64,000 bases of DNA from Thermoplasmatota archaeon. Its GTDB lineage: Archaea; Thermoplasmatota; E2; DHVEG-1. The DNA lies in the NCBI GenBank assembly GCA_029939595.1, contig JAOZSQ010000001.1, positions 261,722-325,721 of the forward strand, given 5' to 3'. Shown here in pieces: positions 12,071 to 55,938 of the stretch (position 1 is the stretch's first letter; every line of letters begins with the position of its first letter). The position numbers were made by a program, and so were the translations under genes. The notes beneath the pieces were generated by a model. The model ran no database searches. It was not told the DNA's origin and was given only the letters and a program-made list of their open reading frames with translations.

Positions 12071-12960
12071 TTAGTTTCAGATTATTTTTAGAGAAGCGGT
12101 CCCATGCGGATCAGAACCCAAAGATATCGGTGGTAGATGCGTTGGATAAGTATAAGGATGATCCTGATGTATATGTTCATTTTTCAGAGATAGAGAAATT
12201 AGGTATGAATCCACAAGTTTCAAATCAGGAATCGCCTTTAGGTGTTTATGTGTACCCATTAAAAGAGATTTGGGATGAATTTGTAGAGAATGATAAAACT
12301 CGTTTAGGTTCTTTTATTGGACGTTTTTATGTTTGGGTTTTGAGATCAAAAAATAAGAGTAAATTTATAAAGGATCTACACAAAAATTATAAGCGAAAGG
12401 ATTTAGATAGAGACATGCTTATTATAAAAAGAAAGTATGGAAAGCAACTTGTGGATAAAGGAACAAGTTTTGATGAAGTTATAAAAAAACAAAGGGATTT
12501 CTATTTGAAGAAACGAATAGCTCCTTCCAAACTTTTTTTTATTTATATGCATGGAATATGTAAAAAATTGAAACCTGATAATCAAGAAAGTATTTGGAAT
12601 AAAATGTTAGTAAAGGATTTGGGTTATACTGGAATTGTGGATAGATCTGGTAAAAGTTATATTCATCGTGCTGAGAAGATACAAGGAGTATTTTTAACTA
12701 ATGATTCTTATGATGTTATAACAATGTTAGAAAATAAAAGATATGAAGTTAAAAAAGTAACCACATTCAAAGATTTAGAATATGCGTTGGATAATGATTA
12801 TATTTTTGTTAAGAATATATTGGATGCGTTAAAAAAAAGAAAAAACAATAATGAATATGTTTGGGTTCGTGCTGAAAAAGATAAATTTTCATCTTATAAA
12901 ATTTCAAAGAAATTATTGAATAAAAAATTAGAATGGTTGGAGGATTATGATTGGGTTTAA
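12067..12960 (+). CDS. CTS-tagged cargo protein, family member 3
   Basis: The same N-terminal 30 aa and family motifs. Confidence 0.7.
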   Translation: MISFRLFLEKRSHADQNPKISVVDALDKYKDDPDVYVHFSEIEKLGMNPQVSNQESPLGVYVYPLKEIWDEFVENDKTRLGSFIGRFYVWVLRSKNKSKFIKDLHKNYKRKDLDRDMLIIKRKYGKQLVDKGTSFDEVIKKQRDFYLKKRIAPSKLFFIYMHGICKKLKPDNQESIWNKMLVKDLGYTGIVDRSGKSYIHRAEKIQGVFLTNDSYDVITMLENKRYEVKKVTTFKDLEYALDNDYIFVKNILDALKKRKNNNEYVWVRAEKDKFSSYKISKKLLNKKLEWLEDYDWV

Positions 12961-14110
12961 ATTATTTTTAGAGAAGCGGTCCCATGCGGATCAGAACCCA
13001 AAGATATCGGTGGTTGAGGCATTAGAACCGTTTAAAAATAATCCTGATATTTATATCCACTATTCTAAGATCCCAAAAATAGGGATAAATCCCAAGGCAC
13101 CATCTAGTAATGATACTCCTAATGGAATTTATTGTTATCCGGTAAGAGAGTGTTGGGATATGATAGAAAATAACAAATTGGAATATGCGGGTGATTTTCC
13201 CTATGTATGGGTGTTAAAATCAAAGAATAGGAACTTCATTAAGGATTTGCATAAGGATTATAAGGAATCGGATTTGAAGAGGGATAAACGTACATTAATG
13301 ATGAGATATGGCGATGTGGTAGAAAGAAGATTTGCGTCTTGGTATCCAAGAACAACTATGGATAAAATTATTTGGAGAAAAGCTGGTGGTCCGCATCCGG
13401 CTAGAATTCTTTTTAGAACAACCGAATTGTTTGCAAAATTGATTAGTAATTCTGATACCAAATACCAACATTTATGGAATGCGTTGTTGAGAAAGGATTT
13501 AGATTATTCTGGTTTTGCTGATAAATCGGGTGAGGGTCATATTCATGAAGGTGAGAAAATACAAGCAGTATTTTTAGATACAAAAGCATATACCATAGTG
13601 GATATGTTAGAAAACAAAACATATGAAACGATAGTTCCAAAGTCGTTTGATGAATTGCAAGAGTTTATTGATGAAGGTGAACTTAATTTGAGAGATGTTT
13701 TAATAGGTTTATTACATCCTGATAAAACAGGCAGGGTTAGAATTGACAATGATTATTATGCTGCTTCTGAGGATGAGATAAAGATATATTCTATTCCAGT
13801 TAGAATGTTCCAACGTAACCCGAAGGATGTTGCTAAGTTTTTAGTAGCAAATTGGGATGAGGATAATGTGTTGTTGCCTTTATTTGGTGATAATATGATT
13901 ATTAACAAGATTAATGTTGGTGACGATTTCTATATGGATATGGTTAAAGAGAGATTTTCAACTCAAACATTGAGAGATTGGAAAAAGATATATGACAAGA
14001 ATACAACCAGAGAGGTGGCAGAGAAGATATTGGATGCTGTGTTCAAGAGCCATTGGAAGAAGGTAGATGGGCTGGTTGATAGGGTTGTTAAGTTGTTGGA
14101 GGAAGTATGA
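12947..14110 (+). CDS. CTS-tagged cargo protein, family member 4
   Basis: MIGFKLFLEKRSHADQNPKISVVEALEPFKNNPD, with the family motifs. Confidence 0.7.
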   Translation: MIGFKLFLEKRSHADQNPKISVVEALEPFKNNPDIYIHYSKIPKIGINPKAPSSNDTPNGIYCYPVRECWDMIENNKLEYAGDFPYVWVLKSKNRNFIKDLHKDYKESDLKRDKRTLMMRYGDVVERRFASWYPRTTMDKIIWRKAGGPHPARILFRTTELFAKLISNSDTKYQHLWNALLRKDLDYSGFADKSGEGHIHEGEKIQAVFLDTKAYTIVDMLENKTYETIVPKSFDELQEFIDEGELNLRDVLIGLLHPDKTGRVRIDNDYYAASEDEIKIYSIPVRMFQRNPKDVAKFLVANWDEDNVLLPLFGDNMIINKINVGDDFYMDMVKERFSTQTLRDWKKIYDKNTTREVAEKILDAVFKSHWKKVDGLVDRVVKLLEEV

Positions 14111-15258
14111 TTAAATTGCGTGATATATTAAAAAGACGAGATAAGGAATTTCCTTCATTTACTGTTGTTGAAGGTTTGAAGGAATATAAGGATCAAGGGG
14201 ATGTGTATATACATTTTGGAAAGGTAAGAAGACTAAAGTTAAATCCGATGGTTTATGAAGAGCAAGGTTCTCCTGTTGGTATATATTTTTATGTTATTAA
14301 AGAATATTGGAAATCTATAGAAGGTGGACAAATTGATTATGCCCAAGACAGACCATATGCCTTTGTTTTGAAACCAAAAAATAAAAGAGGTCTTGTTTCG
14401 GATACTGCAACATATTCAAATAAAAAATTGGTTGCTGATACTAAAAAACTAGAAAAAAAATATGGTAAAAGGTTATTAAAAATATATTTGGATAAGAAAT
14501 CATCTTTACAGACGATTGAAGATCTTTTTGAAAATTACAGATATTATTATGGTGAAGAATCTTTTAAATGTTCAAGGAAACCTATTGCAGAACTGTTTCG
14601 CATAACAAGTGGTATAGCCAGAGATTTATATCGCCCATCTGGTACGAAACATCTTTTTGGTTGGAATGAAGTATTAAATAGTTTAGGTTATAATGGGTTT
14701 GTTGATAAGTCTGGTTTGGGTTGTATTCATAAGTTTGAAATGCATCAGGGATATTTTATTAATGAGAATGTTTATGATACTATTAAAACTTTTAAGATTG
14801 TACCAGGAGAGTATATTAATGTTAAAAATTTGGAACAATTAGAGCCGTATCTTGCCTCTGGTAAGCTTGATTTAAATGACATACTTAATCAAATGGCATT
14901 TTTTGGAGAAGAAAATTATGTAAGAGTTGATACCAGAATGTACGGAGAGACCCGAATATCTTTTATGATTAATAAAAAAGTGTTTAAAAATAATAGAAAC
15001 AATAAAGTTGACTATTTTTTAAATAAATTTTGGCATTTGTCTAGCAATGAAATGGTTAGAGTTATTGATGATTTTAATGTTGGTAATGAATTTTGGAAAA
15101 AAGTAATTCCAAGAGAATGTAATTGGTTATTTAAAAAACGAGAAAATTTTAGTAAAGAAGAATTTGTTGAAAAATGTTTTGAGGATTTTTTTGGGGATGA
15201 GAAATATAGAAAAAAATATTTCAAACAAGTAAAGAAGGTTATTGAGGAAATACCATGA
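14107..15258 (+). CDS. family member 5 (divergent N-terminus, CTS degenerate)
   Basis: MIKLRDILKRRDKEFPSFTVVEGLKEYKDQGDVYIHF. Retains the family core (VGIYFYVIKE, GYNGFVDKSGLGCIHKFE) but lacks the FL-x-E CTS. Confidence 0.65.
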   Translation: MIKLRDILKRRDKEFPSFTVVEGLKEYKDQGDVYIHFGKVRRLKLNPMVYEEQGSPVGIYFYVIKEYWKSIEGGQIDYAQDRPYAFVLKPKNKRGLVSDTATYSNKKLVADTKKLEKKYGKRLLKIYLDKKSSLQTIEDLFENYRYYYGEESFKCSRKPIAELFRITSGIARDLYRPSGTKHLFGWNEVLNSLGYNGFVDKSGLGCIHKFEMHQGYFINENVYDTIKTFKIVPGEYINVKNLEQLEPYLASGKLDLNDILNQMAFFGEENYVRVDTRMYGETRISFMINKKVFKNNRNNKVDYFLNKFWHLSSNEMVRVIDDFNVGNEFWKKVIPRECNWLFKKRENFSKEEFVEKCFEDFFGDEKYRKKYFKQVKKVIEEIP

Positions 15259-17990: not shown

Positions 17991-18455
17991 ATGAAACAAG
18001 TAGAAATAGAGGTGTACAGAACGCTGGAGGATGAGGTTCATGTTTGGCTCCCTTTGACGTGTTTAGATAAGACTTTGAAAGAAATAAAAGTTACTACTAA
18101 ATGCAAGCCAGGATGTTTTATGTGTTGTTATGGCTTTGAATTGGTGCAAGTAGAGCCTCACGAATACATGAATTTGTTGATGCATAGATGCGAAAGGATG
18201 TTCTATGAAAAGACTGCAAAGGAGTTCCGATTCAATATTTGGGGTGGTTGTCAGTTTTTAGATCAGGAATATAAATGTAAAATATATCATGGTCCGAGAC
18301 CTCAAAAATGTAAAGATTATTTTTGTTTTGCAGTTGATGATGATGGGTTTCCCTATGTACAGGATGATTATGTATTTAAAGATTGTATAAAGGAGGGAAA
18401 TCGTTTAAGAGTTGAATTTAAGAAAGGGAAAGAGGATGATCCAAGTAAATTATGA
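17991..18455 (+). CDS. YkgJ/UPF0153-like CxxCxxCC putative metal-chelating protein
   Basis: CKPGCFMCC motif plus downstream Cys pairs. No CTS. Confidence 0.45.
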   Translation: MKQVEIEVYRTLEDEVHVWLPLTCLDKTLKEIKVTTKCKPGCFMCCYGFELVQVEPHEYMNLLMHRCERMFYEKTAKEFRFNIWGGCQFLDQEYKCKIYHGPRPQKCKDYFCFAVDDDGFPYVQDDYVFKDCIKEGNRLRVEFKKGKEDDPSKL

Positions 18456-18876
18456 AATAGATTTGGCTCGTACAGCCGATGGAAGAATGTTATTATGGAT
18501 TCCTAGCGAGTCGTTAAAACATGAACCAAGGGAAATCCATTTTTCTATTAAATGTAAAAAAGGATGTAATTATTGTTGCAGTAAATATAAAGCTGTTCCA
18601 ATTACTGAAGAAGAGTATGATGATTTGATGTTAAAGGGGGCACAAGGATTATATTATAATGATGTTGATAATTGCCTTTCTTTAAAAACGGAAGGTGGCT
18701 GTGAATATCTAAATGATAAAGGTTTATGTGATATATACGATTCTTGCAGACCAGGAGAATGCAAACGCTATGTTTGTTATACAGAAGGCAGGATAAAGTT
18801 GCCAGATGTTCAGAAGTTTTATCAATATAAGGAAATGTTTAAAGATATTAAACCTCAAATGATTAAATATATGTAG
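18412..18876 (+). CDS. YkgJ/UPF0153-like CxxCxxCC protein, tandem paralog
   Basis: CKKGCNYCC. The Cys spacing and WIPSESLK / VWLPLTCL N-termini parallel the 17991 gene. Confidence 0.45.
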   Translation: MNLRKGKRMIQVNYEIDLARTADGRMLLWIPSESLKHEPREIHFSIKCKKGCNYCCSKYKAVPITEEEYDDLMLKGAQGLYYNDVDNCLSLKTEGGCEYLNDKGLCDIYDSCRPGECKRYVCYTEGRIKLPDVQKFYQYKEMFKDIKPQMIKYM

Positions 18877-22658: not shown

Positions 22659-23113
22659 TTAGTTTTATTAGATTCTTAAAGGAGAAATATTTAGATACAT
22701 TGGTATATAGAAAATTTGGTGGTGAGAGTGCGGTTGATGTATTTTTAAATCCATCAAAACACGAGATAGGCAAAATTGCAAGGGAAAACCGATATGGAGA
22801 ACTTCGTTGGATAGCTGATTTAGAAAAAGAAAATATTTATTTTTGGGATGCTAATCATTTACATGATGATGTTTATAATTTATTGGATGGTTCGGGTGTA
22901 CATTTATCAGATATAGAAAAGGCTTATAATGGAAAAGTGTTGACAGGTATATTATCCATGCCAGGATTTAAAGTGAAACAAAGTAGTCTTACTCATTTTA
23001 CATTAGGTCAGCTTAATAAATTCAAAAATAGTGATGTGAATTTGAGTTGGTTGGAAAGATATATGAATTATGATGATTTGATGCAAGGATATGAACGTGG
23101 AGGGAGGATATGA
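22655..23113 (+). CDS. CTS-tagged cargo protein ('WDAN.LHD' family)
   Basis: MISFIRFLKEK. Shares NIYFWDANHLHDDV with the 27095 gene. Confidence 0.6.
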   Translation: MISFIRFLKEKYLDTLVYRKFGGESAVDVFLNPSKHEIGKIARENRYGELRWIADLEKENIYFWDANHLHDDVYNLLDGSGVHLSDIEKAYNGKVLTGILSMPGFKVKQSSLTHFTLGQLNKFKNSDVNLSWLERYMNYDDLMQGYERGGRI

Positions 23114-23922
23114 TTAGTTTTATTCAATTTTTATTAGAAAAAGCAAAAACGCCACCAAAATATGTAACCATGTCGGCTAAAACTTGGAAAGACCAAGATC
23201 CAATCGGTTGGTGGATGTCAATTAAATATGACGGTGTTCGGGCATATTGGGATGGTGAATATTTTTATAGTAGGGCTGGAAATATTTGGGCTGCTCCTGG
23301 TTGGTTAAAGGATAGTATGCCAAAAAATCATCTTGATGGGGAATTCTTTTGTGGCAGAGATAAATTTCATGAATGTAGTGGTATTGCAAGAAAAAAACAG
23401 CCACATGAAGGATGGAGAAAAATTAAATATTATGTGTTTGATTTGCCTGATTCAAACGAACCGTTTGAGACTAGAATGAAGAAATTAGAACAGTTGACAA
23501 AAGGTAACAAAAATATAGTGTTTGTTAAACAAACCAAGATTAAGGATTCCGATCATTTACAAACAGCATTGAAAAAAGAATTGGCTTTAAAAGGTGAAGG
23601 AATGATGTTGCGTAAACCTGGATCAAAATATGAAAGGAAGCGATCAAGTTCATTGTTGAAGATTAAAGAATTTTTTGATGCGGAAGCAGAGATTGTGGGT
23701 TATACCGAAGGAAAGGATAAGTATGAAGGAATGGTGGGGGCTTTTAAAGTAAAAGATGTAAAAAATGGAGCATTGTTTAATTTATCGGGGTTTTCTGATG
23801 CAATGAGAAAGAAACCCCCGAAGATTGGTACAATAGTAACTTACAAATACCAAGGATATCATGCTAGTGGTAAACCAAGGATTCCAGTATTTTTAAGAAT
23901 AAGGAGTGATGCGGGATTATGA
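23110..23922 (+). CDS. CTS-tagged ATP-dependent DNA/RNA ligase (minimal nucleotidyltransferase)
   Basis: MISFIQFLLEK. Motif I KYDGVR, motif III LDGEF, motif IV EGMMLRK, motif V LLKIK. 270 aa. Confidence 0.75.
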   Translation: MISFIQFLLEKAKTPPKYVTMSAKTWKDQDPIGWWMSIKYDGVRAYWDGEYFYSRAGNIWAAPGWLKDSMPKNHLDGEFFCGRDKFHECSGIARKKQPHEGWRKIKYYVFDLPDSNEPFETRMKKLEQLTKGNKNIVFVKQTKIKDSDHLQTALKKELALKGEGMMLRKPGSKYERKRSSSLLKIKEFFDAEAEIVGYTEGKDKYEGMVGAFKVKDVKNGALFNLSGFSDAMRKKPPKIGTIVTYKYQGYHASGKPRIPVFLRIRSDAGL

Positions 23923-27661: not shown

Positions 27662-29073
27662 TTAGTTTCAAACAATATTTAATTGAGGAAAAAATGAAAG
27701 ATTGGAATCAGTATGTCAATTCTATACCTTCATTAAAGAAGGCTATAGAAGTTATGAAAATACTTGAGCCTTATGGAAGGATTTATATTGTGGGTGGTGC
27801 GGTTCGTGATTTAATCACTGGTGAAAAGGTGCCGGATGATATTGACTTGGCTTGTAATATTCCAATGGAAAAGATTGAATCTCTCTTCAAAACCCACGAT
27901 ATCGGAAAAAATAAGGATTTTGGTATTATAGTGATTGTTTATAAAGGCGAAGACATGGAAATAGCCCAATTCCGATCTGATGGAACCTACTCGGATGGAA
28001 GAAGACCGGATTCCATTAAAATTGAAATGTCATTTGAACAGGATGCCGAGAGAAGGGATTTCACAATAAACTCAATGGCAGTGGATGCCGATGGTAATAT
28101 CATTGATTATTTTGATGGAAAGAAGGATGTCAAAAACAAAGTAATCCGAACCGTTGGAGACCCAAATAAACGCTTCTCAGAGGATTACTTGAGAATGCTT
28201 AGAGCAGTACGTTTTTCGTCCAGAATGGGATTTGAGATGGCTCCAGAGACCTTAGAAGCGGTTAAAATTAATGCCGGTTACATAAAGGGTATTGCTGTTG
28301 AGAGAGTTGTTAAAGAACTTATGAAAATGGCCGACCAATCTGGTGACAAATTTGCAGATGCAATCCTTAAACTAAAGGAATCGGGATTGTTAAAATATAT
28401 TCTTCCTGAAGTGTTGAAGATGGACGAGTTTGAGCATCATGCAGAATACCATCCAGAAGGGAATGTATGGGAACATACGCTGGCTGCGTTACGAGTCAAT
28501 AAAATAACAGATCCCATACACAATTTGGCTATTCTCCTCCATGATATAGGAAAGATAGTAACCTACAAAAAGGAAGGTGATAAGATAACATATTTGCAAC
28601 ATGCGAAGAAAGGTATTGATCTTATTGATATGATTGCAGACCGATTGAAGTTGGATACCAAAACAAGGCAAACTTTGAAATTTGCTTGTGAGCATCATAT
28701 GAAGATGCATGATTTTGTTAAAATGTCTCCATCTAAGATCATGAAATTGGTTAATGATGATAATTGGGGTGTACTTCATAATGTTTCTCATTGTGATGAT
28801 AAATGTCGGCTTCAGTTGTACGATAAAAAGCATTGGGATGCCATAACTGATAAAATTGAGAAATTATCTGATAAATATAAAAAAGAGTCTGGAAAAGATC
28901 CGTTGAAAAAGATTGTTAATGGGCAGTTAGTTATGAAAACTAGAGGGATCAAGCCAGGAAAAGAGGTTGGTGTGGTTATTAATGCGACAATGGATTGGAT
29001 AATTAATAATGGTGTGAAATTAGATGATACTAAGAAGATCACCGATTTTGTTAAGAATTATAAAATAGCATGA
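27658..29073 (+). CDS. CTS-tagged CCA-adding / poly(A)-polymerase-family nucleotidyltransferase with HD domain
   Basis: Internal Met (MISFKQYLIEE). GGAVRD...DIDL head motifs, RRDFTINSMA, and a C-terminal HD region (LLHDIGK). Confidence 0.8.
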   Translation: MISFKQYLIEEKMKDWNQYVNSIPSLKKAIEVMKILEPYGRIYIVGGAVRDLITGEKVPDDIDLACNIPMEKIESLFKTHDIGKNKDFGIIVIVYKGEDMEIAQFRSDGTYSDGRRPDSIKIEMSFEQDAERRDFTINSMAVDADGNIIDYFDGKKDVKNKVIRTVGDPNKRFSEDYLRMLRAVRFSSRMGFEMAPETLEAVKINAGYIKGIAVERVVKELMKMADQSGDKFADAILKLKESGLLKYILPEVLKMDEFEHHAEYHPEGNVWEHTLAALRVNKITDPIHNLAILLHDIGKIVTYKKEGDKITYLQHAKKGIDLIDMIADRLKLDTKTRQTLKFACEHHMKMHDFVKMSPSKIMKLVNDDNWGVLHNVSHCDDKCRLQLYDKKHWDAITDKIEKLSDKYKKESGKDPLKKIVNGQLVMKTRGIKPGKEVGVVINATMDWIINNGVKLDDTKKITDFVKNYKIA

Positions 29074-29690
29074 AGTTTATATTAGTATTGTTGTTTGTTG
29101 TTCCTTGTATTGTTTCAGGCGAATCAAAATATTTGTTTCCTTGGGACTTGTCACAGTGGACATGCTTGGGGTATATTAATCAGATAAAGAATACGAAAAC
29201 TTATAAAACTCTTCAAAAATTATTAAAAAAGAGATCCCATAAATTTTATAAGTCGGCATCTCTTTCTGATCTTAAACTAATTCCAACGAAATATACTGTT
29301 AAATATCCATACCATAAGATACGTATTGATGCATATTCATCTTTGGTTAGGATGATACAAGATTCGCATGATAAGGGTTCCCCATTATATGTCTCATCGG
29401 CTTATCGGTCTCCTTATCTCCAGAATTTATTGTGGAAGAATAGATTGAATGCCGAATATGATGTATCAATGGATGCTTTATCAAACTATGTTAGAACCGC
29501 ATATAAAACGGCTCCACCATGTTATTCGGAACATGCAACAGGTTTGGCTGTTGATTTTTTGAAAACAAATAATTGGTTGCGTGATAATGCAAAGAAATAT
29601 GGTTGGAAACAGTCGTTTGATGGTTCAGGAGATGTAACTAACATTATGAAAGAAAGTTGGCATTATGCTTATATAAAGGAGAAATCATGA
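29070..29690 (+). CDS. secreted M15 (VanY-like) D,D- / L-Ala-D-Glu peptidase, endolysin candidate
   Basis: Signal peptide MKFILVLLFVVPCIVSG. SAYRSPYLQ and SEHATGLAVDF are the zinc-ligand motifs of peptidase M15. Confidence 0.7.
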   Translation: MKFILVLLFVVPCIVSGESKYLFPWDLSQWTCLGYINQIKNTKTYKTLQKLLKKRSHKFYKSASLSDLKLIPTKYTVKYPYHKIRIDAYSSLVRMIQDSHDKGSPLYVSSAYRSPYLQNLLWKNRLNAEYDVSMDALSNYVRTAYKTAPPCYSEHATGLAVDFLKTNNWLRDNAKKYGWKQSFDGSGDVTNIMKESWHYAYIKEKS

Positions 29691-30388
29691 AAAAGTATAT
29701 ACTTTTTCTAGGAATTTTATTATTTACAATGCCTGTCATTGCCGATGAATTGGTGCTTGTTTCAAATCCTTGGCCACCATATATATTTGGAAAGATGGGT
29801 TCATCTGATGTTACTGGAATAACAATAGGTCAATATAATAAAATATTTAAGAAGATGAAGATCAAGGTAAAATATATGATGATACCTTGGCGTAGAGCTT
29901 TACAAGAGATAAAAGAAGGATATGCTGATGGAGCAATAATTTTACAACAGAATTCTGAAAGATCAAAATATATGGTGTTTACTAATATTGTAATGGTTGA
30001 AAACACTTTTATGTTTTATTCCAAAAGGAAATATCCTGGGGGTATGGAATGGAAAACACCGTTGGATTTGGTTGGGTATCGTATAGGTTTGGTACGGGGG
30101 TATTCATACGGACCTATTCAGGCAATGATAGATACGGGATTACCTTTACAAATTGAAATGGTAAGTAAAGAAACACAGTTATTGCCCATGTTAGTTAGGG
30201 GAAATATTGATATATTTCCTTATTCAGAGATGATAGCAAAATATGCTTTTAAATTAAAAGGTATTGATTATGTGGTACATGCTTCAAAGGAAGTGTATAA
30301 AGCATATTATCGTATGGGAATTTCAAAGAAGTCAAAATGGAAAAAAATGATCCCTCAATTTAACAAGATTTTAAAAGAGGTTTTATGA
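29687..30388 (+). CDS. secreted substrate-binding-protein family 3 (SBP_bac_3)-like protein
   Basis: The Met at 29687 has an AAGGAG site. Signal peptide MKKYILFLGILLFTMPVIA. Paralog of the 39784 gene. Confidence 0.5.
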   Translation: MKKYILFLGILLFTMPVIADELVLVSNPWPPYIFGKMGSSDVTGITIGQYNKIFKKMKIKVKYMMIPWRRALQEIKEGYADGAIILQQNSERSKYMVFTNIVMVENTFMFYSKRKYPGGMEWKTPLDLVGYRIGLVRGYSYGPIQAMIDTGLPLQIEMVSKETQLLPMLVRGNIDIFPYSEMIAKYAFKLKGIDYVVHASKEVYKAYYRMGISKKSKWKKMIPQFNKILKEVL

Positions 30389-30852
30389 AAAAGTTTTTGA
30401 TTTTTTTACTTATTGCTTTTTTCACAACAACCGTTTTTGCAGAGAGATATTATATCAGATCAAGAACGGCTCATCTTTTATTGCGACCAAAAATTGGTTC
30501 TAAAAAAGTATTGAAATTGAAAAAGGGTGATTCGGTTGAGTTAATAAAGAGAAAGAAAGTATGGGTTTTTTTGAGACATGGAAAAAAACAAGGCTGGTTA
30601 AATAGGATGTTAATCTCAAAACGGAAACCAAAATTAAGAAAGTCTATTTTTTCTAATAAGGTTGATATTTCCAGTACAGCAAGAAGAAGAGCTTCTTCAT
30701 TCACGAGTGCGGCTGCTTCCAGAGGACTTGTAGCCGATCAAGAAACTATGAAAAATCTACCAACAGCGAATTATGCTGCTTTGCACAAAATTGAATCTTT
30801 GGTGATTGATGAAGAGGAAGCTGTTGAATTTTTAATGTATGAAGGAGATTGA
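30385..30852 (+). CDS. secreted SH3b-domain protein
   Basis: Signal peptide, then YYIRSRTAHLLLRPKIGSKKVLKLKKGDSVELIKRKKVWVFLRHGKKQGWL, a typical bacterial SH3 pattern. Basic C-terminus. Confidence 0.5.
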   Translation: MKKFLIFLLIAFFTTTVFAERYYIRSRTAHLLLRPKIGSKKVLKLKKGDSVELIKRKKVWVFLRHGKKQGWLNRMLISKRKPKLRKSIFSNKVDISSTARRRASSFTSAAASRGLVADQETMKNLPTANYAALHKIESLVIDEEEAVEFLMYEGD

Positions 30853-38190: not shown

Positions 38191-38898
38191 ATGAAATTAG
38201 TTCTTTACCCATGTGGATTTTTAGTTAGTTATTATGATGGATTTATTAATGAATTAAAAAATAATGGAATTGTTTTTAATTCTTATCTTGGGCTTTCTGG
38301 TGGCGCAATAAGCTCAGTTACATCCTGTTTGGATATTGATTCCAAAAAAATTTGGAATGATATTGAATGTGATCTCTGGCAGGACCAGAAACCAGGATTT
38401 GTTAGCCGGTTCTTTAAACGAGAATTTAAAACACGAATAGTCGGTAACACAGCCGAACAAGAAATTCTTGATAAAATAAATGGGAAGGTAGTTATTGTCG
38501 CTGCTAAAGTACCCTCCTTTGATCTTACCTATTTTACACATTTTGAAACTGTTGATGATCTGAGAAGAAAAATGATGGCATCATCAACTTTGCCATATCT
38601 AATGTACCCATTTCCAGCCAAAATAAAAGATGATTATTATGTGGATGGTTGGTTTGGTTTGTTCAATAGATTGAATTTTCATATAAATAGTGAAAAGGCA
38701 ATTATTTTAAGGGCTAGTCCAGGATTTAAAGTGAGAATGTGTAAAATCGGAGATCATATTTGGAGAGTTAAAATACTGCTTCCAAAAATGATTTGGAAAA
38801 TATTTAGACCAACTAAAGAAATCATGTTAGATTGGTTTGAGGAAGGTAAAATGGCGGGACAACAATTTTTAGATAAATATTATATGGAGATTAAATGA
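38191..38898 (+). CDS. patatin-like phospholipase candidate
   Basis: GLSGGA (GxSxG nucleophile) and YYVDGWFG (DGx catalytic Asp). GGAGGATAGAATG ribosome-binding site. Confidence 0.35.
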   Translation: MKLVLYPCGFLVSYYDGFINELKNNGIVFNSYLGLSGGAISSVTSCLDIDSKKIWNDIECDLWQDQKPGFVSRFFKREFKTRIVGNTAEQEILDKINGKVVIVAAKVPSFDLTYFTHFETVDDLRRKMMASSTLPYLMYPFPAKIKDDYYVDGWFGLFNRLNFHINSEKAIILRASPGFKVRMCKIGDHIWRVKILLPKMIWKIFRPTKEIMLDWFEEGKMAGQQFLDKYYMEIK

Positions 38899-39437
38899 AA
38901 TTAATGTTATTGAAAACAGAGTTGGATGAATTGCTCTCTTTTATGGAGAATGAAGCAACAACTTTGGGTATTGGACGAGAAGATATTGATAAAATAGAAG
39001 TAGAAACAGCAGCTAATATGCGGTTTACTTTTCCTAGTCATACTAGTCAGTTAGAATTAATTAGACGTGTTACCAGACAGGTTGCTTCTAGTTTAAGTTT
39101 TACTGAGGAAGCTTTAGATGATATTGGGTTAGCTATTGATGAGGCTTGTGCCAATATTATAAATCATTCGTATACAGAATCAAGAAGTGGATTGATTACA
39201 GTTGATTTTGAATTGGATCAATCTAAACTTGTTATGAGATTAATTGATAAAGGTGAAGCAGGACAAACTTTTAATCCAGAATTACTCAATCCAGTGGATA
39301 AAGAAAAATATCTTAAAGTTCTGACTAAGGGCGGATTGGGTGTGTATCTTGTAAAGAAAATTATGGATGAAGTTGAATATACAGTTTGTCCAGGTATTTC
39401 TAATTGTTTAACAATGGTTAAATATACAGGTAGGTAG
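38895..39437 (+). CDS. RsbW/SpoIIAB-like anti-sigma factor serine kinase (GHKL ATPase)
   Basis: N-box DEACANIINHSY, G-box GGLGVYLVKKIMDEV. About 180 aa, typical of partner-switching kinases. Confidence 0.6.
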   Translation: MKLMLLKTELDELLSFMENEATTLGIGREDIDKIEVETAANMRFTFPSHTSQLELIRRVTRQVASSLSFTEEALDDIGLAIDEACANIINHSYTESRSGLITVDFELDQSKLVMRLIDKGEAGQTFNPELLNPVDKEKYLKVLTKGGLGVYLVKKIMDEVEYTVCPGISNCLTMVKYTGR

Positions 39438-39439
39438 TT

Positions 39440-39784
39440 ATGAAAACGCTTGAAATTATCACTAAACATGGAAATAATGTGTTAGTTATTGTGTTAAAAG
39501 GTCTTTTAAATGCTGATACTAGTCCAGGATTGGAAAAGACACTTATTGATGTTGTGGAGCAAGAATCCAAACCTCAAATTTTGTTGGATATGAAAGAATT
39601 AACTTATATTAGTAGTGCTGGTATTGGTTGTTTTATTGGAGTGATTAAAAGAATTAGAGTTAAACAAGGAGATCTTAGATTTTGTTCTCTTGATTCTAAA
39701 GTTATGCGAGTTTTTAATCTTTTAGATATGGCCGATTTTTTTCAGTTTTTTGAAACACAAGAAGAAGGAGTGAAAAGTTTTTAA
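39440..39784 (+). CDS. STAS-domain anti-sigma-factor antagonist (RsbV/SpoIIAA-like)
   Basis: VLKGLLNADTSPGLEKTL...ILLDMKELTYISSAGIG. 114 aa. A Ser in ISSAG is a possible phospho-acceptor. Confidence 0.6.
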   Translation: MKTLEIITKHGNNVLVIVLKGLLNADTSPGLEKTLIDVVEQESKPQILLDMKELTYISSAGIGCFIGVIKRIRVKQGDLRFCSLDSKVMRVFNLLDMADFFQFFETQEEGVKSF

Positions 39785-40533
39785 TGAAAAAGTTAATATT
39801 GTTTTTAATTGTGTTTTGTTTTATAGCAACAAACTGTTTTTCTGAAAATTTGTTTACAGTAACAGCAGAACCATATCCACCTTATGTCGGTCCAAAACTG
39901 AAAAATAATGGATGGACTTGGGTGGTTGCTAAAACTGCTTTGGAGAGGGTTGGATATAAAGCAAAATTGAAATATTTACCTTGGGCTAGAGCACTAATGA
40001 CAACTAAAGCAGGTAAAATAGATGGATTATTTCCCGCATTCTTTACAGTGGAAAGAACAAAAACATATTTATATTCAGTGCCGATAGCAGAAGCAAGAAC
40101 AGGTTTTTTCAAACTTAAAAAACGAACAGATATTGTTTTCAATGGCAATCTGAGAACAATGACAAAATATAGAATTGGAGTGGGTAGAGGTTATGCTACA
40201 AGTCCTGAATTTGACAATGCAACCTATCTAAAGAAAAGACTACAAATCAAATCAATACAAAGTTTGAAAATGCTTTGGAAAGGTAGATTGGATTTGGCAA
40301 CAGGAAGTGAATTAGTTGATGGTTATAATCTAAAACAACTAGAACCAAAATATCCTGGAATATCAAAAAAAATAATGTTTGTGGAACCACCTCTTACTAT
40401 TCAGTATTGTCATATGGCAGTATCAAAGAATGCACCCAACGCAGCACAAAAATTGGAAGATTTTAATATAGGTATGAGAATGATAATGTTGGACGGTACT
40501 TATATGAAAATTTTTAAGAAATATAATAAGTAG
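39784..40533 (+). CDS. secreted SBP_bac_3-like substrate-binding protein, paralog of 29687 gene
   Basis: Signal peptide MKKLILFLIVFCFIATNCFS, and EPYPPYVGPK parallels NPWPPYIFGK. Confidence 0.5.
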   Translation: MKKLILFLIVFCFIATNCFSENLFTVTAEPYPPYVGPKLKNNGWTWVVAKTALERVGYKAKLKYLPWARALMTTKAGKIDGLFPAFFTVERTKTYLYSVPIAEARTGFFKLKKRTDIVFNGNLRTMTKYRIGVGRGYATSPEFDNATYLKKRLQIKSIQSLKMLWKGRLDLATGSELVDGYNLKQLEPKYPGISKKIMFVEPPLTIQYCHMAVSKNAPNAAQKLEDFNIGMRMIMLDGTYMKIFKKYNK

Positions 40534-40592: not shown

Positions 40593-40985
40593 TTATTTCT
40601 TTTTACTATTCTGTTTACATAGTTTGGTTAGTTCTTTGGTACACTTTTTTTGATTTTTTGACTTTTGACAAGCTTTCTTGGCTTTTTGACTACAAGAACC
40701 TTTATAAGCACCATAAACGACACCTGTTACAGTCCCAATAGCAAGACCATACATACTACCAACTATAGCACCTAATCCCCCTGAAAGTTTCACATCATTT
40801 TTTCCTTGTCCAGATAACTTGGATACCGCTGCCATTCCCAAACCAGTGCTAACTGCACCAACACTTGAACCTATAGTACCTCCACTGGCTCCAGAAGCAA
40901 TTGCACTTCCTAGTTTGGAACTCTTGATGTGTTTGATACTTCCTGGTTTGGCTTTCTCTGTTAAATAACCTCTTCTATTAATCAT
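40593..40985 (-). CDS. glycine-zipper membrane protein with basic Cys-containing C-terminus
   Basis: Runs of GxxxG/SxxxG repeats (GASGGTIGSSVGAVSTGLGMAAV...GGLGAIVGSMYGLAIGTVTGVVYGAY). AGGAGAGATTATG ribosome-binding site. Confidence 0.55.
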   Translation of the reverse strand: MINRRGYLTEKAKPGSIKHIKSSKLGSAIASGASGGTIGSSVGAVSTGLGMAAVSKLSGQGKNDVKLSGGLGAIVGSMYGLAIGTVTGVVYGAYKGSCSQKAKKACQKSKNQKKCTKELTKLCKQNSKKK

Positions 40986-40993
40986 AATCTCTC

Positions 40994-41395
40994 CTATTTA
41001 TTTTTTTTTAAAGCGTTTATCATCGCTCGGTCTACCATATCCTTCCCACGATTTTTCAGTTTAGGTGGTTTGAAATCTCCCAAATTTGGATATTTATTGG
41101 CGATTTGTTTTCCTTGTTTCCTTGTTGTGAATGTTTCAAAATTACAGTCATCCATACTTGCTTGTTTTATACCATCACATACTTGTTCTTTTATCCAATC
41201 CGCATTTTTCATGCATTTGGTGTAGTTCTTTTCAACTTGTTTTATACATTTTTTCGTTTCTATTTTGTTTCGCCTATTTTTAAGTTTTGTGTTTACCTTG
41301 GAACCAAATTCTTTGACTTTTGTAACACCCATTTTTAATGCCGATGCAATTCCTTCATCTAACCTATTTTGTTTTATATGACATCTATTAATCAT
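40994..41395 (-). CDS. basic Lys/Cys-rich protein
   Basis: The second Met was chosen (MINRCHIKQ) because the RBS-plus-start string AGGAGAGATTATGATTAATAG duplicates that of the 40593 gene. Confidence 0.5.
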   Translation of the reverse strand: MINRCHIKQNRLDEGIASALKMGVTKVKEFGSKVNTKLKNRRNKIETKKCIKQVEKNYTKCMKNADWIKEQVCDGIKQASMDDCNFETFTTRKQGKQIANKYPNLGDFKPPKLKNRGKDMVDRAMINALKKNK

Positions 41396-41503
41396 AATCT
41401 CTCCTATAAAAAATATATTTATCATTATTTATATAGTCTCTTCATAAATAATAGAAAATCAGATAACACTATTTTTGGAACTCGTCTTTTTGACGATGCT
41501 TTT

Positions 41504-41556: not shown

Positions 41557-41564
41557 TATAAATA
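41557..41564 (+). promoter_or_regulatory. T4-type late promoter TATAAATA
   Basis: Exact box about 25 nt upstream of the sheath gene's CAGGAGG site. Confidence 0.45.
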
Positions 41565-41589: not shown

Positions 41590-43848
41590 ATGGCGTTTAG
41601 TTTATCCCCTAGTGTTGACGTAACTGAAAAGGATCTAAGTGTATCAGTAGCAAATTTGCCTTCTTCAAAAACTGCAATGGTTGTTAAAGCAGCAACCGGT
41701 GAGGCTTTGAAAATTGTTCAGGTAACTAGCGTAGGTGACTTGGAAACTATATTCGGTTTCCCAACAAATTTTAACTATAAGGACTGGTTCAATGCATGGA
41801 ACTTCCTACAATATGCAAATTCACTTTATTGTGTTCGTCCATTGTCAACAAAAGCCCATAACTGTGCAGTTGCACTTTCAGGTGGGACCGGACAAGCTGA
41901 CGCTCCGGCTGCAATAGTTGACGCAGATGGTAATCCAACATTAGACGATAAAGGTGTTCAAACATACGGTGCAGCAAAATTAGGTACTGGTATGAAAGTT
42001 AATGAAGCAGTTAGTTGTGGAAAATTGTATAATTCAGATGTAGCAGAATTGAGACTCAATGCATTAGCAGAAGTCCCTTCCCTCACTAAAACATTCTTTG
42101 ACGTATCTATTGATGGCGTTTCAGGTGAAATTACTTCTAAAATTGTAAGTAACTTGGCAGGAAAAGAAATTAAATACGATAATAAAGAATACTATATTGA
42201 AGAAAATGTTTGGGAAAAAGCAGGTATTACAGAAGAATTGATGGATTCAGAAGGTGAAGTTACTTTAATTAAAAATTTTAAAGCAGTTAAAGTAGACCAA
42301 AGAACCGATGACGAAAAAACAGCAGAAAAAGATCCTTATTATACCAAAAAAGTGGTTATTGCTAAAGTATCAGCTTCTAAAAAGCTTCTTCTTGAAATGA
42401 CTGCCGATAATCCAGCACTTCCTGTTATGAGTAAATACGGCGTGACAGGCGCAGAAGTTAAAGAAGATCCAACAGGCTCATTTAAAGTTGCCGGTGCTGT
42501 CGCACCTAAATTGGTTCTCTATAACAGATATGTTACAAATGAACAAGATGTCGCAGTTTCAGTATGTTCATCAAAAGATTCTTGGAATAAACCTCTGTAC
42601 CTCGGAACAGCAGTTAAATTCTCAGACTTCTTTGACTATGAACCAGAATGGGATCAAGGACAATTCGTTATGATCGTGTTTAAGAAAAACCCACAAGGTA
42701 ACTACGAAAATAAAGAAGAATGGTTGCTCTCATATAACGTGAAAGGTAGAGATCATAATAATAGTAACATCTTCGCTGAAGAAGTTATTAAAAATAAATC
42801 AAAATACCTCTACGTTAAAGTAGGAACCAACGGCGATCCAGTTAATACCTCTTGTAACGAAATGATTGAACTTCAACATTCAACTTTTGAATCAGTTACT
42901 CCAAGAGAAGCTGACGTGTTTCCAACCATTTCAACTGAAGCTTATAAAAAATCAGCTATCGTTAACGCATGTGAACTCTTCTCAGATCCAGATTCGTTTG
43001 ATATTAATATCCTCGTGCAACCAGCAGAAGCACCTAATAAAATGTCAAACCTAGCTGAAACTAGAAAAGACTGTGTGGCTGTTATCGGACCATACGAACA
43101 TGATAATTTACTCGGTAAATCAAACGGCGAAGCTACTGCCTATATGACAGGAAAATACGGAACAGTTGCAGGTAAACCCGAATCTAAAGTGTATTCAGCA
43201 TTCGGTACATACTCAGCAGTATACGGTAATATGAAATATCAATACGATAAATACAACGATCTTAATCGTTGGGTTCCAGTATTGGGTGACGTTGCAGGTC
43301 TATACGCAGCAACAGATAAAGATTTAGACCCTTGGTGGGCACCAGCAGGTCTCTCCAGAGGTAAAATTAAGAATTGTATCAAACTAGCTTTCAATCCTAA
43401 TAAAGCTCATAGAGATGAATTGTATTATAATGCAATCAACCCAATTATGGGTGTGCCAGGAGAAGGAACAGCTATCGTTTGGGGTCAGAAAACAGCTACC
43501 GCCAAACCTTCAGCTTTCAACAGATTGAACGTAAGACGCTTGATGATCACGATTGAAAAATCAGTGGCTACATCAGCTAGATACTTCTTGTTTGAATTTA
43601 ACGATTCATTTACTAGAAACTTCTTCAAAGGTATGGTTGACCCATATCTCGGTGGAATCCAAAGTAGACGTGGATTGTACGATTATCTGGTTGTCTGTGA
43701 CGACTCTAACAATACACCAGAAATTATTGATCAGAATGGCTTGTGTTTGGATATATATGTTAAACCTACGAAAGTAGCTGAATTTATCAAAATCCAAGCG
43801 GTGGTCGTTAAAACTGGGGCGAGCTTTTCCGAAGCCATAGGAGCCTAA
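41590..43848 (+). CDS. tail sheath protein (T4 gp18-like)
   Basis: The N-terminal ~85 aa parallel T4 gp18 (…IVQVTSVGDLETIFG…AWNFLQYANSLYCVRPL against …QIKQVTNEVDLVNTFG…AMNFLQYGNDLRVVR). 752 aa. Confidence 0.85.
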   Translation: MAFSLSPSVDVTEKDLSVSVANLPSSKTAMVVKAATGEALKIVQVTSVGDLETIFGFPTNFNYKDWFNAWNFLQYANSLYCVRPLSTKAHNCAVALSGGTGQADAPAAIVDADGNPTLDDKGVQTYGAAKLGTGMKVNEAVSCGKLYNSDVAELRLNALAEVPSLTKTFFDVSIDGVSGEITSKIVSNLAGKEIKYDNKEYYIEENVWEKAGITEELMDSEGEVTLIKNFKAVKVDQRTDDEKTAEKDPYYTKKVVIAKVSASKKLLLEMTADNPALPVMSKYGVTGAEVKEDPTGSFKVAGAVAPKLVLYNRYVTNEQDVAVSVCSSKDSWNKPLYLGTAVKFSDFFDYEPEWDQGQFVMIVFKKNPQGNYENKEEWLLSYNVKGRDHNNSNIFAEEVIKNKSKYLYVKVGTNGDPVNTSCNEMIELQHSTFESVTPREADVFPTISTEAYKKSAIVNACELFSDPDSFDINILVQPAEAPNKMSNLAETRKDCVAVIGPYEHDNLLGKSNGEATAYMTGKYGTVAGKPESKVYSAFGTYSAVYGNMKYQYDKYNDLNRWVPVLGDVAGLYAATDKDLDPWWAPAGLSRGKIKNCIKLAFNPNKAHRDELYYNAINPIMGVPGEGTAIVWGQKTATAKPSAFNRLNVRRLMITIEKSVATSARYFLFEFNDSFTRNFFKGMVDPYLGGIQSRRGLYDYLVVCDDSNNTPEIIDQNGLCLDIYVKPTKVAEFIKIQAVVVKTGASFSEAIGA

Positions 43849-43984: not shown

Positions 43985-44932
43985 ATGCCAACAAATATAG
44001 TGTATACATATCAAATAGTTAAAGAATTTATAGAAAATAAAGGTTGCGAGTTAATTTCTACAACATATCAAAATTGCAAAACTGATTTAGAAATTAAATG
44101 TGAATGTGGAAACATATTTTTTCGTAGTTTTGATCATTTCAAAAATTCTAAACAAAGAAATTGCAAGAAATGCCGATATATCAAATCATCAAAATCCCAA
44201 CGTAAGTCCTTTTCAGAAGTAAAAACAAATATAGAAATAACAGGATGTGATTTACTATCTACAGAGAACGATTATAAGAATATTAAATCTAAGTTGCATG
44301 TTAAATGTAAGGATTGTGATAATACTTTTTTAAGAACATATGAGAAAGTTGTTAACCAAAAACAGTTCTTTTGTTCTGAATGTACTAATTTTTCCCGATC
44401 TAAAAAACATACCCGATTTTTTCAATCAGTAAAAGATGAAATTGATGCTACTGGTTGTGTGCTTTTATCAACTGAATATATTTCTAATAATGATCCGCTT
44501 CATATTAAATGTAAGGAGTGTAATAGTACATTTTATAGAACGCTTTCTGTTTTTCAAATGCATGAAGCATATTATTGTGATGTGTGTTCTAAACATCAAT
44601 CTAAAGATGTTCGTAAGGTGGAAGAATATTTAAAATTTCAAAAATTTAATTACGAGAAAGAATTCCGTTTTTCTGATTGCCGAGGCAAGAAATACCCATT
44701 GCCTTTTGATTTTGCCATTTTTAAAGAAGATGGTTCCATTAATTTTTTAATAGAACATATGGGAGAGCAACATTTTACTCCAAAGGAATGTTTTGGTGGA
44801 GAGGAGGCTTTTAAAAAGACTCTTATTAATGATGATACGAAGGTTAGATATTGTGAAGAAAACGAGATAGATTTGTATTATACTTATCCAAATATTGATC
44901 CAGATAACATTCGTTTTAGGAAGATTTGTTGA
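43985..44932 (+). CDS. zinc-ribbon-repeat protein with C-terminal DUF559/Vsr-like PD-(D/E)xK nuclease motif
   Basis: Three ~75-aa repeats (IE..GC.LLST.Y...KC.xC.N.F.R...C..C), then LPFDFAIFKEDGSINFLIEHMGEQH. Confidence 0.4.
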   Translation: MPTNIVYTYQIVKEFIENKGCELISTTYQNCKTDLEIKCECGNIFFRSFDHFKNSKQRNCKKCRYIKSSKSQRKSFSEVKTNIEITGCDLLSTENDYKNIKSKLHVKCKDCDNTFLRTYEKVVNQKQFFCSECTNFSRSKKHTRFFQSVKDEIDATGCVLLSTEYISNNDPLHIKCKECNSTFYRTLSVFQMHEAYYCDVCSKHQSKDVRKVEEYLKFQKFNYEKEFRFSDCRGKKYPLPFDFAIFKEDGSINFLIEHMGEQHFTPKECFGGEEAFKKTLINDDTKVRYCEENEIDLYYTYPNIDPDNIRFRKIC

Positions 44933-48394: not shown

Positions 48395-49069
48395 TTACAC
48401 AAACTGGTTATCGTATTCTGAATTAAATGCTTGCAAACCGATATTTTTTATCATTTCTTTTCTCCATTTATAGTTTCGTTCTGGTATATCCCGCCAATTA
48501 AGAGTAAAGGGTGCTAATTCATTGGTGCCTTTTATTGTTTTTTTCCATAACTTATGAAAGTGATTTTCTCCGTGTGGAATGGAGAGGAGAACATTTTTTT
48601 GAGATATGGGAATTACGTTTGTATAAAAATCCCCCCAAATTTTGTCTTCTACATAAGCTATTTCTGTAGCGATTAACACATCAAGTCTTATTCCTTTTAT
48701 AAATGGTCTTATGCTATTGGCAATGATCCTAGATCCATTTTTAAAGATTATTGTTAGGTCATTGCAATGGTCTATTAATGGTGATCCTTCCAACATCAGT
48801 TTTATTTTTTTAATTTCTTCTTTAGCATAATCCAATTTTGTTAAAAATAATCCTATAGTTGAGTATTGGTTATAGCAAGCATACCATGCGGTGTATAGTC
48901 TTAATGCTGTGCTTGAGCCACATTGTCTGGATGAGTTGATTACTGTGAAGTTATTTTCTTGGATATGTTCTAAAAGGGCTTCATCGTGATCCCGAAGTGT
49001 GAGTGGAATTAATCCTTCATCGTAGTTTATTATTTTACAAAATTCTGCGAATTCTTTTAATGATTTCAT
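48395..49069 (-). CDS. terminase-large-subunit-like ATPase domain only (no nuclease domain)
   Basis: Walker A NSSRQCGSSTAL and Walker B VLIATEIAYV, collinear with the 8206 terL ATPase half. 224 aa. Confidence 0.6.
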   Translation of the reverse strand: MKSLKEFAEFCKIINYDEGLIPLTLRDHDEALLEHIQENNFTVINSSRQCGSSTALRLYTAWYACYNQYSTIGLFLTKLDYAKEEIKKIKLMLEGSPLIDHCNDLTIIFKNGSRIIANSIRPFIKGIRLDVLIATEIAYVEDKIWGDFYTNVIPISQKNVLLSIPHGENHFHKLWKKTIKGTNELAPFTLNWRDIPERNYKWRKEMIKNIGLQAFNSEYDNQFV

Positions 49070-55635: not shown

Positions 55636-55938
55636 ATGATAGTATTAAATGAGAGATATAAAAAATCCATTGCCGGACCGAAGGGTTCCACAAAGGGTAT
55701 GAAAGCTAACATTGCAAAGGAATTCAAGAGAAGTGATGATGCAATGGATGAAGTTATTGATTGTGTAAACAAGAAAAAGAAAGCGGCAGAAAAATGTATG
55801 GCTCAAATGAAAAAAGTTGATGCTTCAGAAAGGTACAAAGTTGGTGAAAAATGTTTGAAAACATTTGTTAATCAATATAAAAAATGTGGAAGTAATTGGG
55901 GAATGGATTTTTCAGGACTTAAAATAAAATCGGTTTAA
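55636..55938 (+). CDS. small Lys-rich hypothetical protein
   Basis: Coupled ORF. Confidence 0.45.
   Translation: MIVLNERYKKSIAGPKGSTKGMKANIAKEFKRSDDAMDEVIDCVNKKKKAAEKCMAQMKKVDASERYKVGEKCLKTFVNQYKKCGSNWGMDFSGLKIKSV

Follow-up and report, generated by a model that had tools for sequence, protein, structure and literature searches.

We analysed a 64,000-nt window of contig JAOZSQ010000001.1 (positions 261,722 to 325,721; assembly GCA_029939595.1, Thermoplasmatota archaeon), which by its gene content is part of a giant T4-like myovirus. Within it we observed a pair of small minus-strand genes, here called A and B, situated between the end of a 38-kb run of plus-strand genes and a tail-sheath gene (Table 1). 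The sheath (41590-43848, +) matched phrog_23 at 2e-91 and was ~40% identical to that of Vibrio phage phiTY18. The window also contains two tail-tube genes, a gp15-like sheath stabiliser at 1130, homing-endonuclease-like genes, and genes for the terminase small (4555) and large (8206) subunits. The original prediction had noted a pair of opposite-strand genes at 40593-41425, where two minus-strand open reading frames (ORFs) lie at 40593-40985 (B) and 40994-41425 (A). This observation is real, with some of its details corrected below.

Two minus-strand genes and their expression signals

The ORF list gives A as 40994-41425, but the second ATG, at 41395, is the real start and has a Shine-Dalgarno (SD) sequence. 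We rejected the 143-aa form of A starting at 41425, whose ATG abuts the promoter-like motif TATAAATA, precedes the predicted transcription start and lacks a ribosome-binding site (RBS). An independent gene call (Logan assembly, run SRR21545386) gave 133 aa for A and 130 aa for B. We trained a codon-usage log-odds score on 37 long genes from the window; it was +0.27 for A and +0.35 for B in the annotated frame (gene mean 0.44, sd 0.09) and negative in all five other frames of both. Given the coding scores, the RBS start and the independent gene call, we treat A and B as real genes. Among the proteins of the window they rank second and third in lysine content.

The neighbours of the pair are an SBP_bac_3 gene and the tail-sheath gene. 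Convergence with the SBP gene, as predicted, was observed for B across a gap of 59 nt. The pair had also been described as the only minus-strand genes inside the 38-kb plus-strand run; it lies at the end of that run, and a further minus-strand gene occurs at 48395-49069. The latter encodes a terminase-large-subunit-like fragment (224 aa, phrog_5989 at 1.6e-20) between the sheath and tube genes, accompanies HNH/homing-endonuclease-like genes (43985-44932) and is extra to the full-length terminase at 8206-9936 (+). The window has 33% guanine plus cytosine (GC), and its GC skew on the coding strand is 0.2-0.43 throughout, falling to ~0 only at 40-44 kb, the location of the minus-strand pair and the sheath gene.

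In T4, TATAAATA is the consensus of late promoters, at -13 to -6 from the transcription start (PMC1524935). One copy precedes A and a divergent copy lies upstream of the sheath gene; the leader predicted for A has the same length as that of the gp15-like gene. In the intergenic regions of the window, sense-strand TATAAATA occurs 17-48 nt before the starts of g720 and of the gp15-like, sheath and tube genes. No sigma-70-like site was found upstream of A. No promoter motif precedes B itself, whose start is 8 nt past the stop of A, so B is probably co-transcribed with A. The geometry of the motif, which at A equals that at the gp15-like, sheath and tube genes, suggests that the pair is expressed late, and together A and B look like one late operon.

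We found no terminator-like hairpin between B and the convergent SBP gene; the single hairpin found was weak (41482-41496, +). The 38-kb run (1130-40533, +) is headed by late-promoter motifs at 690 and 1092 and has one sense-strand TATAAATA only, internal, at 38682. The whole run may be transcribed late as a single, very long unit, which, with no terminator before 41482, would run antisense through B and A.

Table 1. Coordinates of the gene pair, its signals and protein segments, and examples of the starts of genes that share an N-terminal decapeptide tag
Feature	Position in window	Strand	Description
Gene B	40593-40985	-	130 aa, pI 10.2, 13.2 kDa, 16.9% Lys (22 Lys), 21 Gly
Gene A	40994-41395	-	133 aa, pI 10.0, 15.4 kDa, 19.5% Lys (26 Lys), ORFan
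TATAAATA motif, T4-type late-promoter-like	41426-41433	-	predicted transcription start ~41420; 25-nt leader to ATG of A
Divergent TATAAATA	41557-41564	+	upstream of tail-sheath gene (41590-43848)
24-nt repeat, copy 1, ATAGGAGAGATTATGATTAATAGA	41384-41407	-	SD GGAG, spacer, ATG, codons I-N-R of A
24-nt repeat, copy 2	40974-40997	-	TAG stop of A (40994-40996) plus SD and start of B
Four-cysteine module of A	41144-41248	-	C50, C61, C73, C84; spacing 10/11/10, mirror-symmetric about residue 67
B residues 1-10, MINRRGYLTE	40956-40985	-	weak in-register match (Y7, L8, E10) to the tag
B residues 25-54, candidate transmembrane segment 1 (TM1)	40824-40913	-	Gly/Ala/Ser-rich, weakly hydrophobic, signal-anchor-release (SAR)-like character
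B residues 68-96, candidate TM2	40698-40784	-	G72, 76, 80, 84, 88, 92, 96
B residues 97-130, polybasic tail	40596-40697	-	net +12; C98, C106, C115, C123; predicted helix-turn-helix
Tagged gene starts, first part	6863, 9933, 10868, 12067, 12947, 15255, 17439, 22290, 22655, 23110, 23919, 24662	+	
Tagged gene starts, second part	26259, 27095, 27658, 30852, 31355, 32442, 33398, 34477, 34892, 35709	+	
Tagged gene starts, last part	37047, 37723, 46191	+	

A duplicated initiation region ahead of two ORFans

The duplicated RBS-plus-start sequence noticed in the original prediction proved to be an exact 24-mer, ATAGGAGAGATTATGATTAATAGA, with two copies in the window, both on the minus strand. Each copy covers the SD sequence, the spacer, the ATG and codons 2-4 (MINR). 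No third copy was found in the window with <=3 mismatches, and none occurred in 100 shuffles. The A/G variation described at the end of the repeat was not observed: the base after AATAG is A in both copies. ATGATAAA is also common to both, 13 or 21 nt further upstream, so the duplicated unit spans ~45-50 nt, with its copies 410 nt apart. Both initiation regions were unstructured as RNA, and no RNA structure was found in the leaders of A and B.

Parts of the repeat are widespread in the genome: GGAGAGATTA also serves as the RBS of the gp15-like gene, and ~15 genes start with ATGATTA. Despite these common parts, identity over the full 24 nt is far beyond convergence. Neither GTDB genomes nor IMG/VR contained a 20-mer taken from the repeat.

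Sequence identity between A and B ends abruptly past codon 4. BLASTP aligned the two proteins over one 18-residue stretch (HIKxxxLxxxIAS; E = 0.004), which we rejected as proof of paralogy, since similarity beyond MINR was at chance when measured against composition-preserving shuffles (P = 0.13, Smith-Waterman). The same comparison puts the KKC..K...C segment that A and B were said to share at chance level. The repeat goes back either to a duplication or exchange of the leader alone, or to an old tandem duplication in which the gene bodies diverged past recognition while the initiation region was retained. There is a likeness to the PeSL elements of T4-type hyperplastic regions, which are early-promoter plus stem-loop units: these repeated regulatory cassettes likewise place short identical sequences before unrelated ORFans in a plastic region, flank novel ORFs and are plausible recombination substrates. 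Here, in contrast, the repeated unit is an RBS-start region behind a late promoter, and two copies only were seen.

Homology searches returned no relatives of either protein. A full HMMER scan of 1.84 billion representative proteins and a word-index search of 5.8e9 clusters each retrieved A itself only, and nothing else was found in an IMG/VR peptide-pattern scan, in PDB or by tblastn against 50,697 phage genomes (E <= 1). The HMMER scan covered A, and B was searched by word-index, phage-genome and family-library searches. Nothing significant was found for B by word index, in IMG/VR, in PDB, by tblastn against the same phage genomes, or in Pfam, NCBIfam, PHROGs and PADLOC. Its best sub-significant scores were to phrog_22557 (E = 0.0034, unknown function) and, in Pfam, to DUF5862 (E = 0.038, 14 bits compared to a cut-off of 33), with Romo1 at E = 2.6. 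None of the Pfam glycine-zipper families (Gly-zipper_Omp, YMGG, 2TM) was listed for B at E <= 10.

We also compared 59 related sheath loci from IMG/VR and JGI metagenomes, in which the terminase gene lies directly upstream of the sheath gene. No A-like, B-like or glycine-zipper ORF was found in these 59 loci. At the locus studied here, ~30 kb of extra plus-strand genes, and then A and B, lie between terminase and sheath. The closest sheath proteins were 52-54% identical (IMG/VR, JGI metagenomes and the 5.8e9-cluster collection). A and B thus make up an ORFan operon that is specific to its lineage, and a finding of modest interest.

Protein features and a possible holin-like role of B

The glycine zipper of ~70 aa followed by a Lys/Cys-rich tail, as originally described for one of the two proteins, was recovered in B. 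Small-xxx-small motifs extend over about 70 aa and, in TM2, glycine recurs at every fourth position seven times (G72 to G96; P = 0.0013, shuffling of residues 25-96). A TopPred-style GES scan predicted two "certain" membrane segments, with centres at 32-50 (GES >1.0) and 74-87. Kyte-Doolittle hydrophobicity was 0.8-1.2 for TM1 and reached 1.56 for TM2, and unweighted Hessa sums were +5.4 and +3.2 kcal/mol, respectively. By these values the predicted helices of B are marginal, TM1 with its many Gly, Ala and Ser residues more so than TM2. Net charges of +6 (residues 1-24), +2 (loop) and +12 (tail, residues 96-130) predict an N-in/C-in topology. A single-sequence AlphaFold2 (AF2) model of B was poor (pLDDT 55.8), with a helix at 79-93 and a helix-turn-helix in the tail (100-108 and 112-129; pLDDT 70-81).

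A was predicted, with low confidence, to be all-helical (single-sequence AF2, pLDDT 45.4), and GES/TopPred-style and hydrophobicity scans found no membrane segment in it. Cysteine makes up 3-4% of A and of B compared to 1.0% of the window proteome. The symmetry of the four cysteines of A had P = 0.03 under random placement; those of B, with spacings of 7/8/7, are symmetric about residue 110.5 (P = 0.044). The partner of the zipper protein had been described as Lys-rich with CxxxxxxxC pairs. A is indeed Lys-rich, but the Cx7C pairs belong to B, and A has 10/11/10 spacing.

In its spacing, the cysteine pattern would suit two helices in an antiparallel hairpin, with the cysteines as two rungs between them. 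It resembles the twin CXnC hairpins of CHCH proteins in having two pairs of equal n (Cx10C...Cx10C in A, Cx7C...Cx7C in B), and in four mirror-symmetric cysteines that could form two rungs across an antiparallel helix-turn-helix, as in the AF2 hairpin of the B tail. CHCH (twin Cx9C) and twin Cx3C families are eukaryotic and mitochondrial, whereas the spacings here are 10/11/10 and 7/8/7 and the B tail is predicted to lie in the reducing cytoplasm. The Pfam CHCH profile matched neither A nor B. Elsewhere in the window, two 154-aa ORFs have 6.5-7.1% Cys (17991-18876, +) and a 100-aa protein among the structural genes has 21% Lys and 4% Cys (55636-55938, +); none of these resembles A or B. We also considered and rejected a two-component spanin: A (MINRC start) has no signal peptide, lipobox or hydrophobic stretch, and B has two hydrophobic segments and a tail of only 35 aa, compared to the single N-terminal TM helix and long periplasmic coiled coil of an i-spanin.

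By analogy, the features of B taken together (marginal helices, SAR-like TM1, zipper TM2, basic tail and late motif) come closest to those of a class II holin or pinholin. Class II holins have an N-in/C-in topology (PMC9636201). The helix-helix contacts from which the pinhole of the pinholin S21 68 forms are made through a glycine zipper in TMD2, and holins in general are small and have a basic C-terminus (PMC9025707). B has the positively charged hydrophilic C-terminal domain (net +12) and, at 130 aa with two GES segments and N-in/C-in charges, a size and predicted topology that would suit a holin, with borderline hydrophobicity. We tentatively propose, as the likeliest of the mechanisms considered yet still short of probable, that B is a pinholin-like late membrane permeabiliser and A its partner.

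In such a mechanism, a two-gene late operon would be transcribed from a gp55-type TATAAATA promoter, divergent from the tail-sheath promoter, and both proteins would be translated from identical initiation regions. B would be a small inner-membrane protein with both ends in the cytoplasm and a weakly hydrophobic, Gly/Ala/Ser-rich helix 1. The uninterrupted glycine face of helix 2 would pack B copies into a small homo-oligomeric channel. Once enough B had accumulated late in infection, the channels would collapse the membrane potential, as with a class II holin of the pinholin type. Depolarisation would then activate or release an exported cell-wall hydrolase, for which the candidate is a VanY-domain peptidase encoded 11 kb from the pair on the other strand (29070-29690, +), the only candidate wall hydrolase seen in the window. 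A small-hole holin that depolarises the membrane would suffice for lysis, since the VanY protein carries a Sec-type signal sequence at its N-terminus. The polybasic four-cysteine tail of B and the soluble, basic A, which would have a comparable four-cysteine hairpin, could set the timing on the cytoplasmic side in an antiholin-like manner, by a logic like that of T4 RIII; this regulatory role of A is purely conjectural. Membrane insertion, oligomerisation, permeabilisation, interaction between A and B, and the link to lysis are all steps that we infer.

The closest known system is the pinholin S21 68 and antiholin S21 71 of the lambdoid phage 21, with two TM helices and an N-in/C-in topology, both of them predicted for B. 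S21 68 has a helix 1 of low hydrophobicity, a glycine-zipper helix 2, a basic cytoplasmic C-terminus, late expression and an exported endolysin (PMC9025707, PMC9636201), all of which are predicted or proposed for B as well. In contrast to S21 68, B has no sequence or family match, is twice as long, and lacks a dual start and an adjacent endolysin. Its zipper consists of seven in-register glycines, not GxxxSxxxG, and its 35-aa tail carries four cysteines. Its N-terminus (24 aa, +6) is nearer the locked antiholin form. The T4 holin T and RIII offer a second likeness, in concept only, a late holin whose cytoplasmic part binds a small soluble timing modulator (PMC8385771). T, of class III, spans the membrane once and has a large periplasmic domain; there is no homology, and an A-B interaction is purely hypothetical.

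Several observations weigh against a holin role. No holin family was matched in Pfam (E <= 10), PHROGs or NCBIfam, no endolysin or spanin gene lies beside the pair, and no dual-start motif was found. Hydrophobicity was borderline (Kyte-Doolittle maxima of 1.2 and 1.56, positive Hessa sums), and AF2 predicted no helix for B residues 25-78. From the precedent of S21 71, an N-terminus of 24 residues and charge +6 would hold TM1 in the membrane, antiholin-like (PMC9025707), and the usual holin of T4-type phages is T, of class III (PMC9636201). No holin precedent is known for a cytoplasmic tail with four cysteines. The window covers only ~15% of a 427-kb genome. Large phages also encode many small membrane proteins that are not holins and have other or unknown functions, as in T4. 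Overall, the holin-like or pore-forming element suggested by the original prediction is compatible with B in its two predicted segments, zipper, predicted topology and late motif, whereas A has no membrane segment and no holin family was matched. A lack of predicted membrane segments, which the original prediction had named as its refutation, was not observed for B. Judged from sequence, a pore-forming or holin-like function is thus a possible one for B.

This abundance of small membrane proteins with other functions also favours the view that B is a non-lytic one, acting in superinfection exclusion or immunity, as an ion-leak "viroporin" that adjusts host physiology or as a membrane assembly factor, with A an unrelated basic, possibly nucleic-acid-binding, operon-mate. 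The TM and topology predictions apply here just as they do to a holin, the pair lies away from lysis genes and matches no holin family, and A is helical, Lys-rich and tied to B by the leader only. We consider this role rather doubtful: the T4 exclusion and immunity genes imm and sp are early whereas the pair has a late-type motif only, and so extreme a glycine zipper favours a homo-oligomeric channel over a passive anchor.

The tagged gene array and further alternatives

About 33 plus-strand genes of the window (1896-46191) start with MISFKQFLxE or MRFKQFLxE and are mostly unrelated to one another. No comparable decapeptide tag was found on the minus strand of the window. Among those with the tag are genes for a DNA ligase (23110-23922) and for a CCA-adding enzyme (true start 27658). 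Several starts in the ORF list lie upstream of the tag Met, which is probably the true start of those genes. Four tandem tagged paralogs (10868-15258, +; 400, 297, 387 and 383 aa) are 28-53% identical and have MISFRLFLEKRSHADQNPKISVV in common; no Pfam match was found for them.

The tag recalls the capsid targeting sequence (CTS) of T4, MKTYQEFIAE (PMC8442874). In the T4 CTS, targeting depends on residues 4 and 7 and prohead protease cleavage on residues 8 and 10, the determinants being aromatics at 4 and 7, I/L at 8 and E at 10 (PMC9026906). We observed that xxxFKQFLxE agrees with the CTS at exactly the mapped positions 4, 7, 8 and 10. This agreement suggests that the tag is a capsid-targeting signal, and the array, inserted between terminase and sheath, may encode a very large set of proteins that are packaged in the capsid and injected.

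Host-like genes at 38191-40533 (+) and 29070-30852 (+) do not carry the N-terminal tag. They encode a patatin-like phospholipase, an RsbW-like anti-sigma kinase (HATPase_c_2), a STAS anti-sigma antagonist, two SBP_bac_3 proteins with signal peptides, the VanY peptidase with its signal peptide, and another secreted protein of 155 aa. About 5.4 kb before the window start (L061, 1770-6030) lie three minus-strand genes, among them one for a metallophosphatase-like protein and one for a PI-PLC-C1 domain protein, which is phospholipase C-like and unusual in a phage.

Scored on a position-specific scoring matrix (PSSM) of the tag family, the N-terminus of B reached +7.9 bits (null P ~0.001), compared to 18-29 bits for members, and outscored every untagged gene of the window. 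B has R4, Y7, L8 and E10, with no aromatic at position 4. A scored -13 bits and did not match.

The main rival explanation casts A and B as internal head (ejection) proteins of the T4 internal protein (IP) type, small, basic and hypervariable, made late, included in the prohead core and delivered with the DNA. T4 IPs are 8-20 kDa, highly basic, non-essential and highly diverse, with only the CTS in common (PMC3012670, PMC9026906). B would be targeted or trimmed, or both, through its N-terminal decapeptide, with cleavage after L8-x-E10, and the four-cysteine hairpins would become disulfide-stapled in the released virion. The shared 5' leader would be the type of conserved 5' end at which T-even IP genes shuffle.

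The phage is T4-like, ~33 neighbouring genes have a CTS-like start, and MINRRGYLTE of B is in register at positions 7, 8 and 10, which also tells against a holin. Both proteins (13-15 kDa, pI ~10, Lys-rich and non-conserved) resemble the small basic T4 IPs, a late promoter motif is present, and the cysteine content, with its symmetric spacing, is three times the window average. We nevertheless regard this explanation as unlikely. B lacks the aromatic at position 4 that is near-invariant in the family and a T4 targeting determinant, and its score is far below that of members; A has no CTS-like sequence at all. The 70-residue glycine-zipper region of B is unlike known IPs, and the pair lies on the strand opposite the tagged array. 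The capsid-targeting role of the tag is itself only inferred, and the tagged genes include those for DNA ligase and the CCA-adding enzyme. In contrast to genes for T4 IPs, in which the conserved 5' end comprises a whole CTS, A and B share an RBS and four codons.

Packaging and membrane activity could also be combined, which we judge quite improbable. B would then be a packaged, protease-trimmed glycine-zipper protein, kept soluble by its weak hydrophobicity and ejected with the DNA by way of the contractile tail, that inserts into the host inner membrane as a small channel or translocation aid. A would be a co-packaged basic partner, and the pair part of the tagged repertoire of at least 33 genes. 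The N-terminus of the T6SS effector Tde1, like B, has weakly hydrophobic GxxxG repeats, which permeabilise or cross the target membrane (PMC10240207). Tde1 is delivered by a contractile-tail-like machine, whereas virion delivery of B is speculative, and there is no homology.

A toxin/immunity or toxin-antitoxin pair, the other option in the original prediction, is unsupported and highly unlikely. It would suit two adjacent small genes in one operon, one of them potentially membrane-active, but PADLOC gave 0 families at E <= 1, Pfam and NCBIfam gave none, and no homologs were found in plasmids, bacteria or phages. Both proteins are strongly basic, which makes electrostatic neutralisation unlikely, and the pair sits in the late structural region of a T4-like phage of lytic type, behind a late promoter motif. 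Least probable of all, to the point of being negligible, is that A and B are chance, unexpressed ORFs in an AT-rich spacer and the repeat a non-coding duplication: all searches lacked homologs and both compositions are biased, but the codon-usage score is positive solely in the annotated frame, both ORFs have a strong SD sequence at correct spacing in an unstructured initiation region, together they fill the 1-kb gap nearly completely, and the in-register glycines and symmetric cysteines are non-random.

On present evidence the pair itself is a modest curiosity; what stands out more in the window is the tagged gene array around it. The identical 24-nt region before two otherwise unrelated ORFans is a clean case of a regulatory sequence copied or swapped independently of its genes. 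If B were packaged and ejected, it would be a phage counterpart of T6SS-delivered glycine-zipper effectors and a membrane-active addition to the injected-protein arsenal of T4-like phages. If B is instead a holin or pinholin, it would be a new one outside all described families, its glycine zipper unusually pure and its regulatory tail stapled by cysteines. It would also come from a giant T4-like phage, whereas the unrelated T-type holin is the one normally expected in that group. Such a protein would help to explain the construction and timing of minimal channels.

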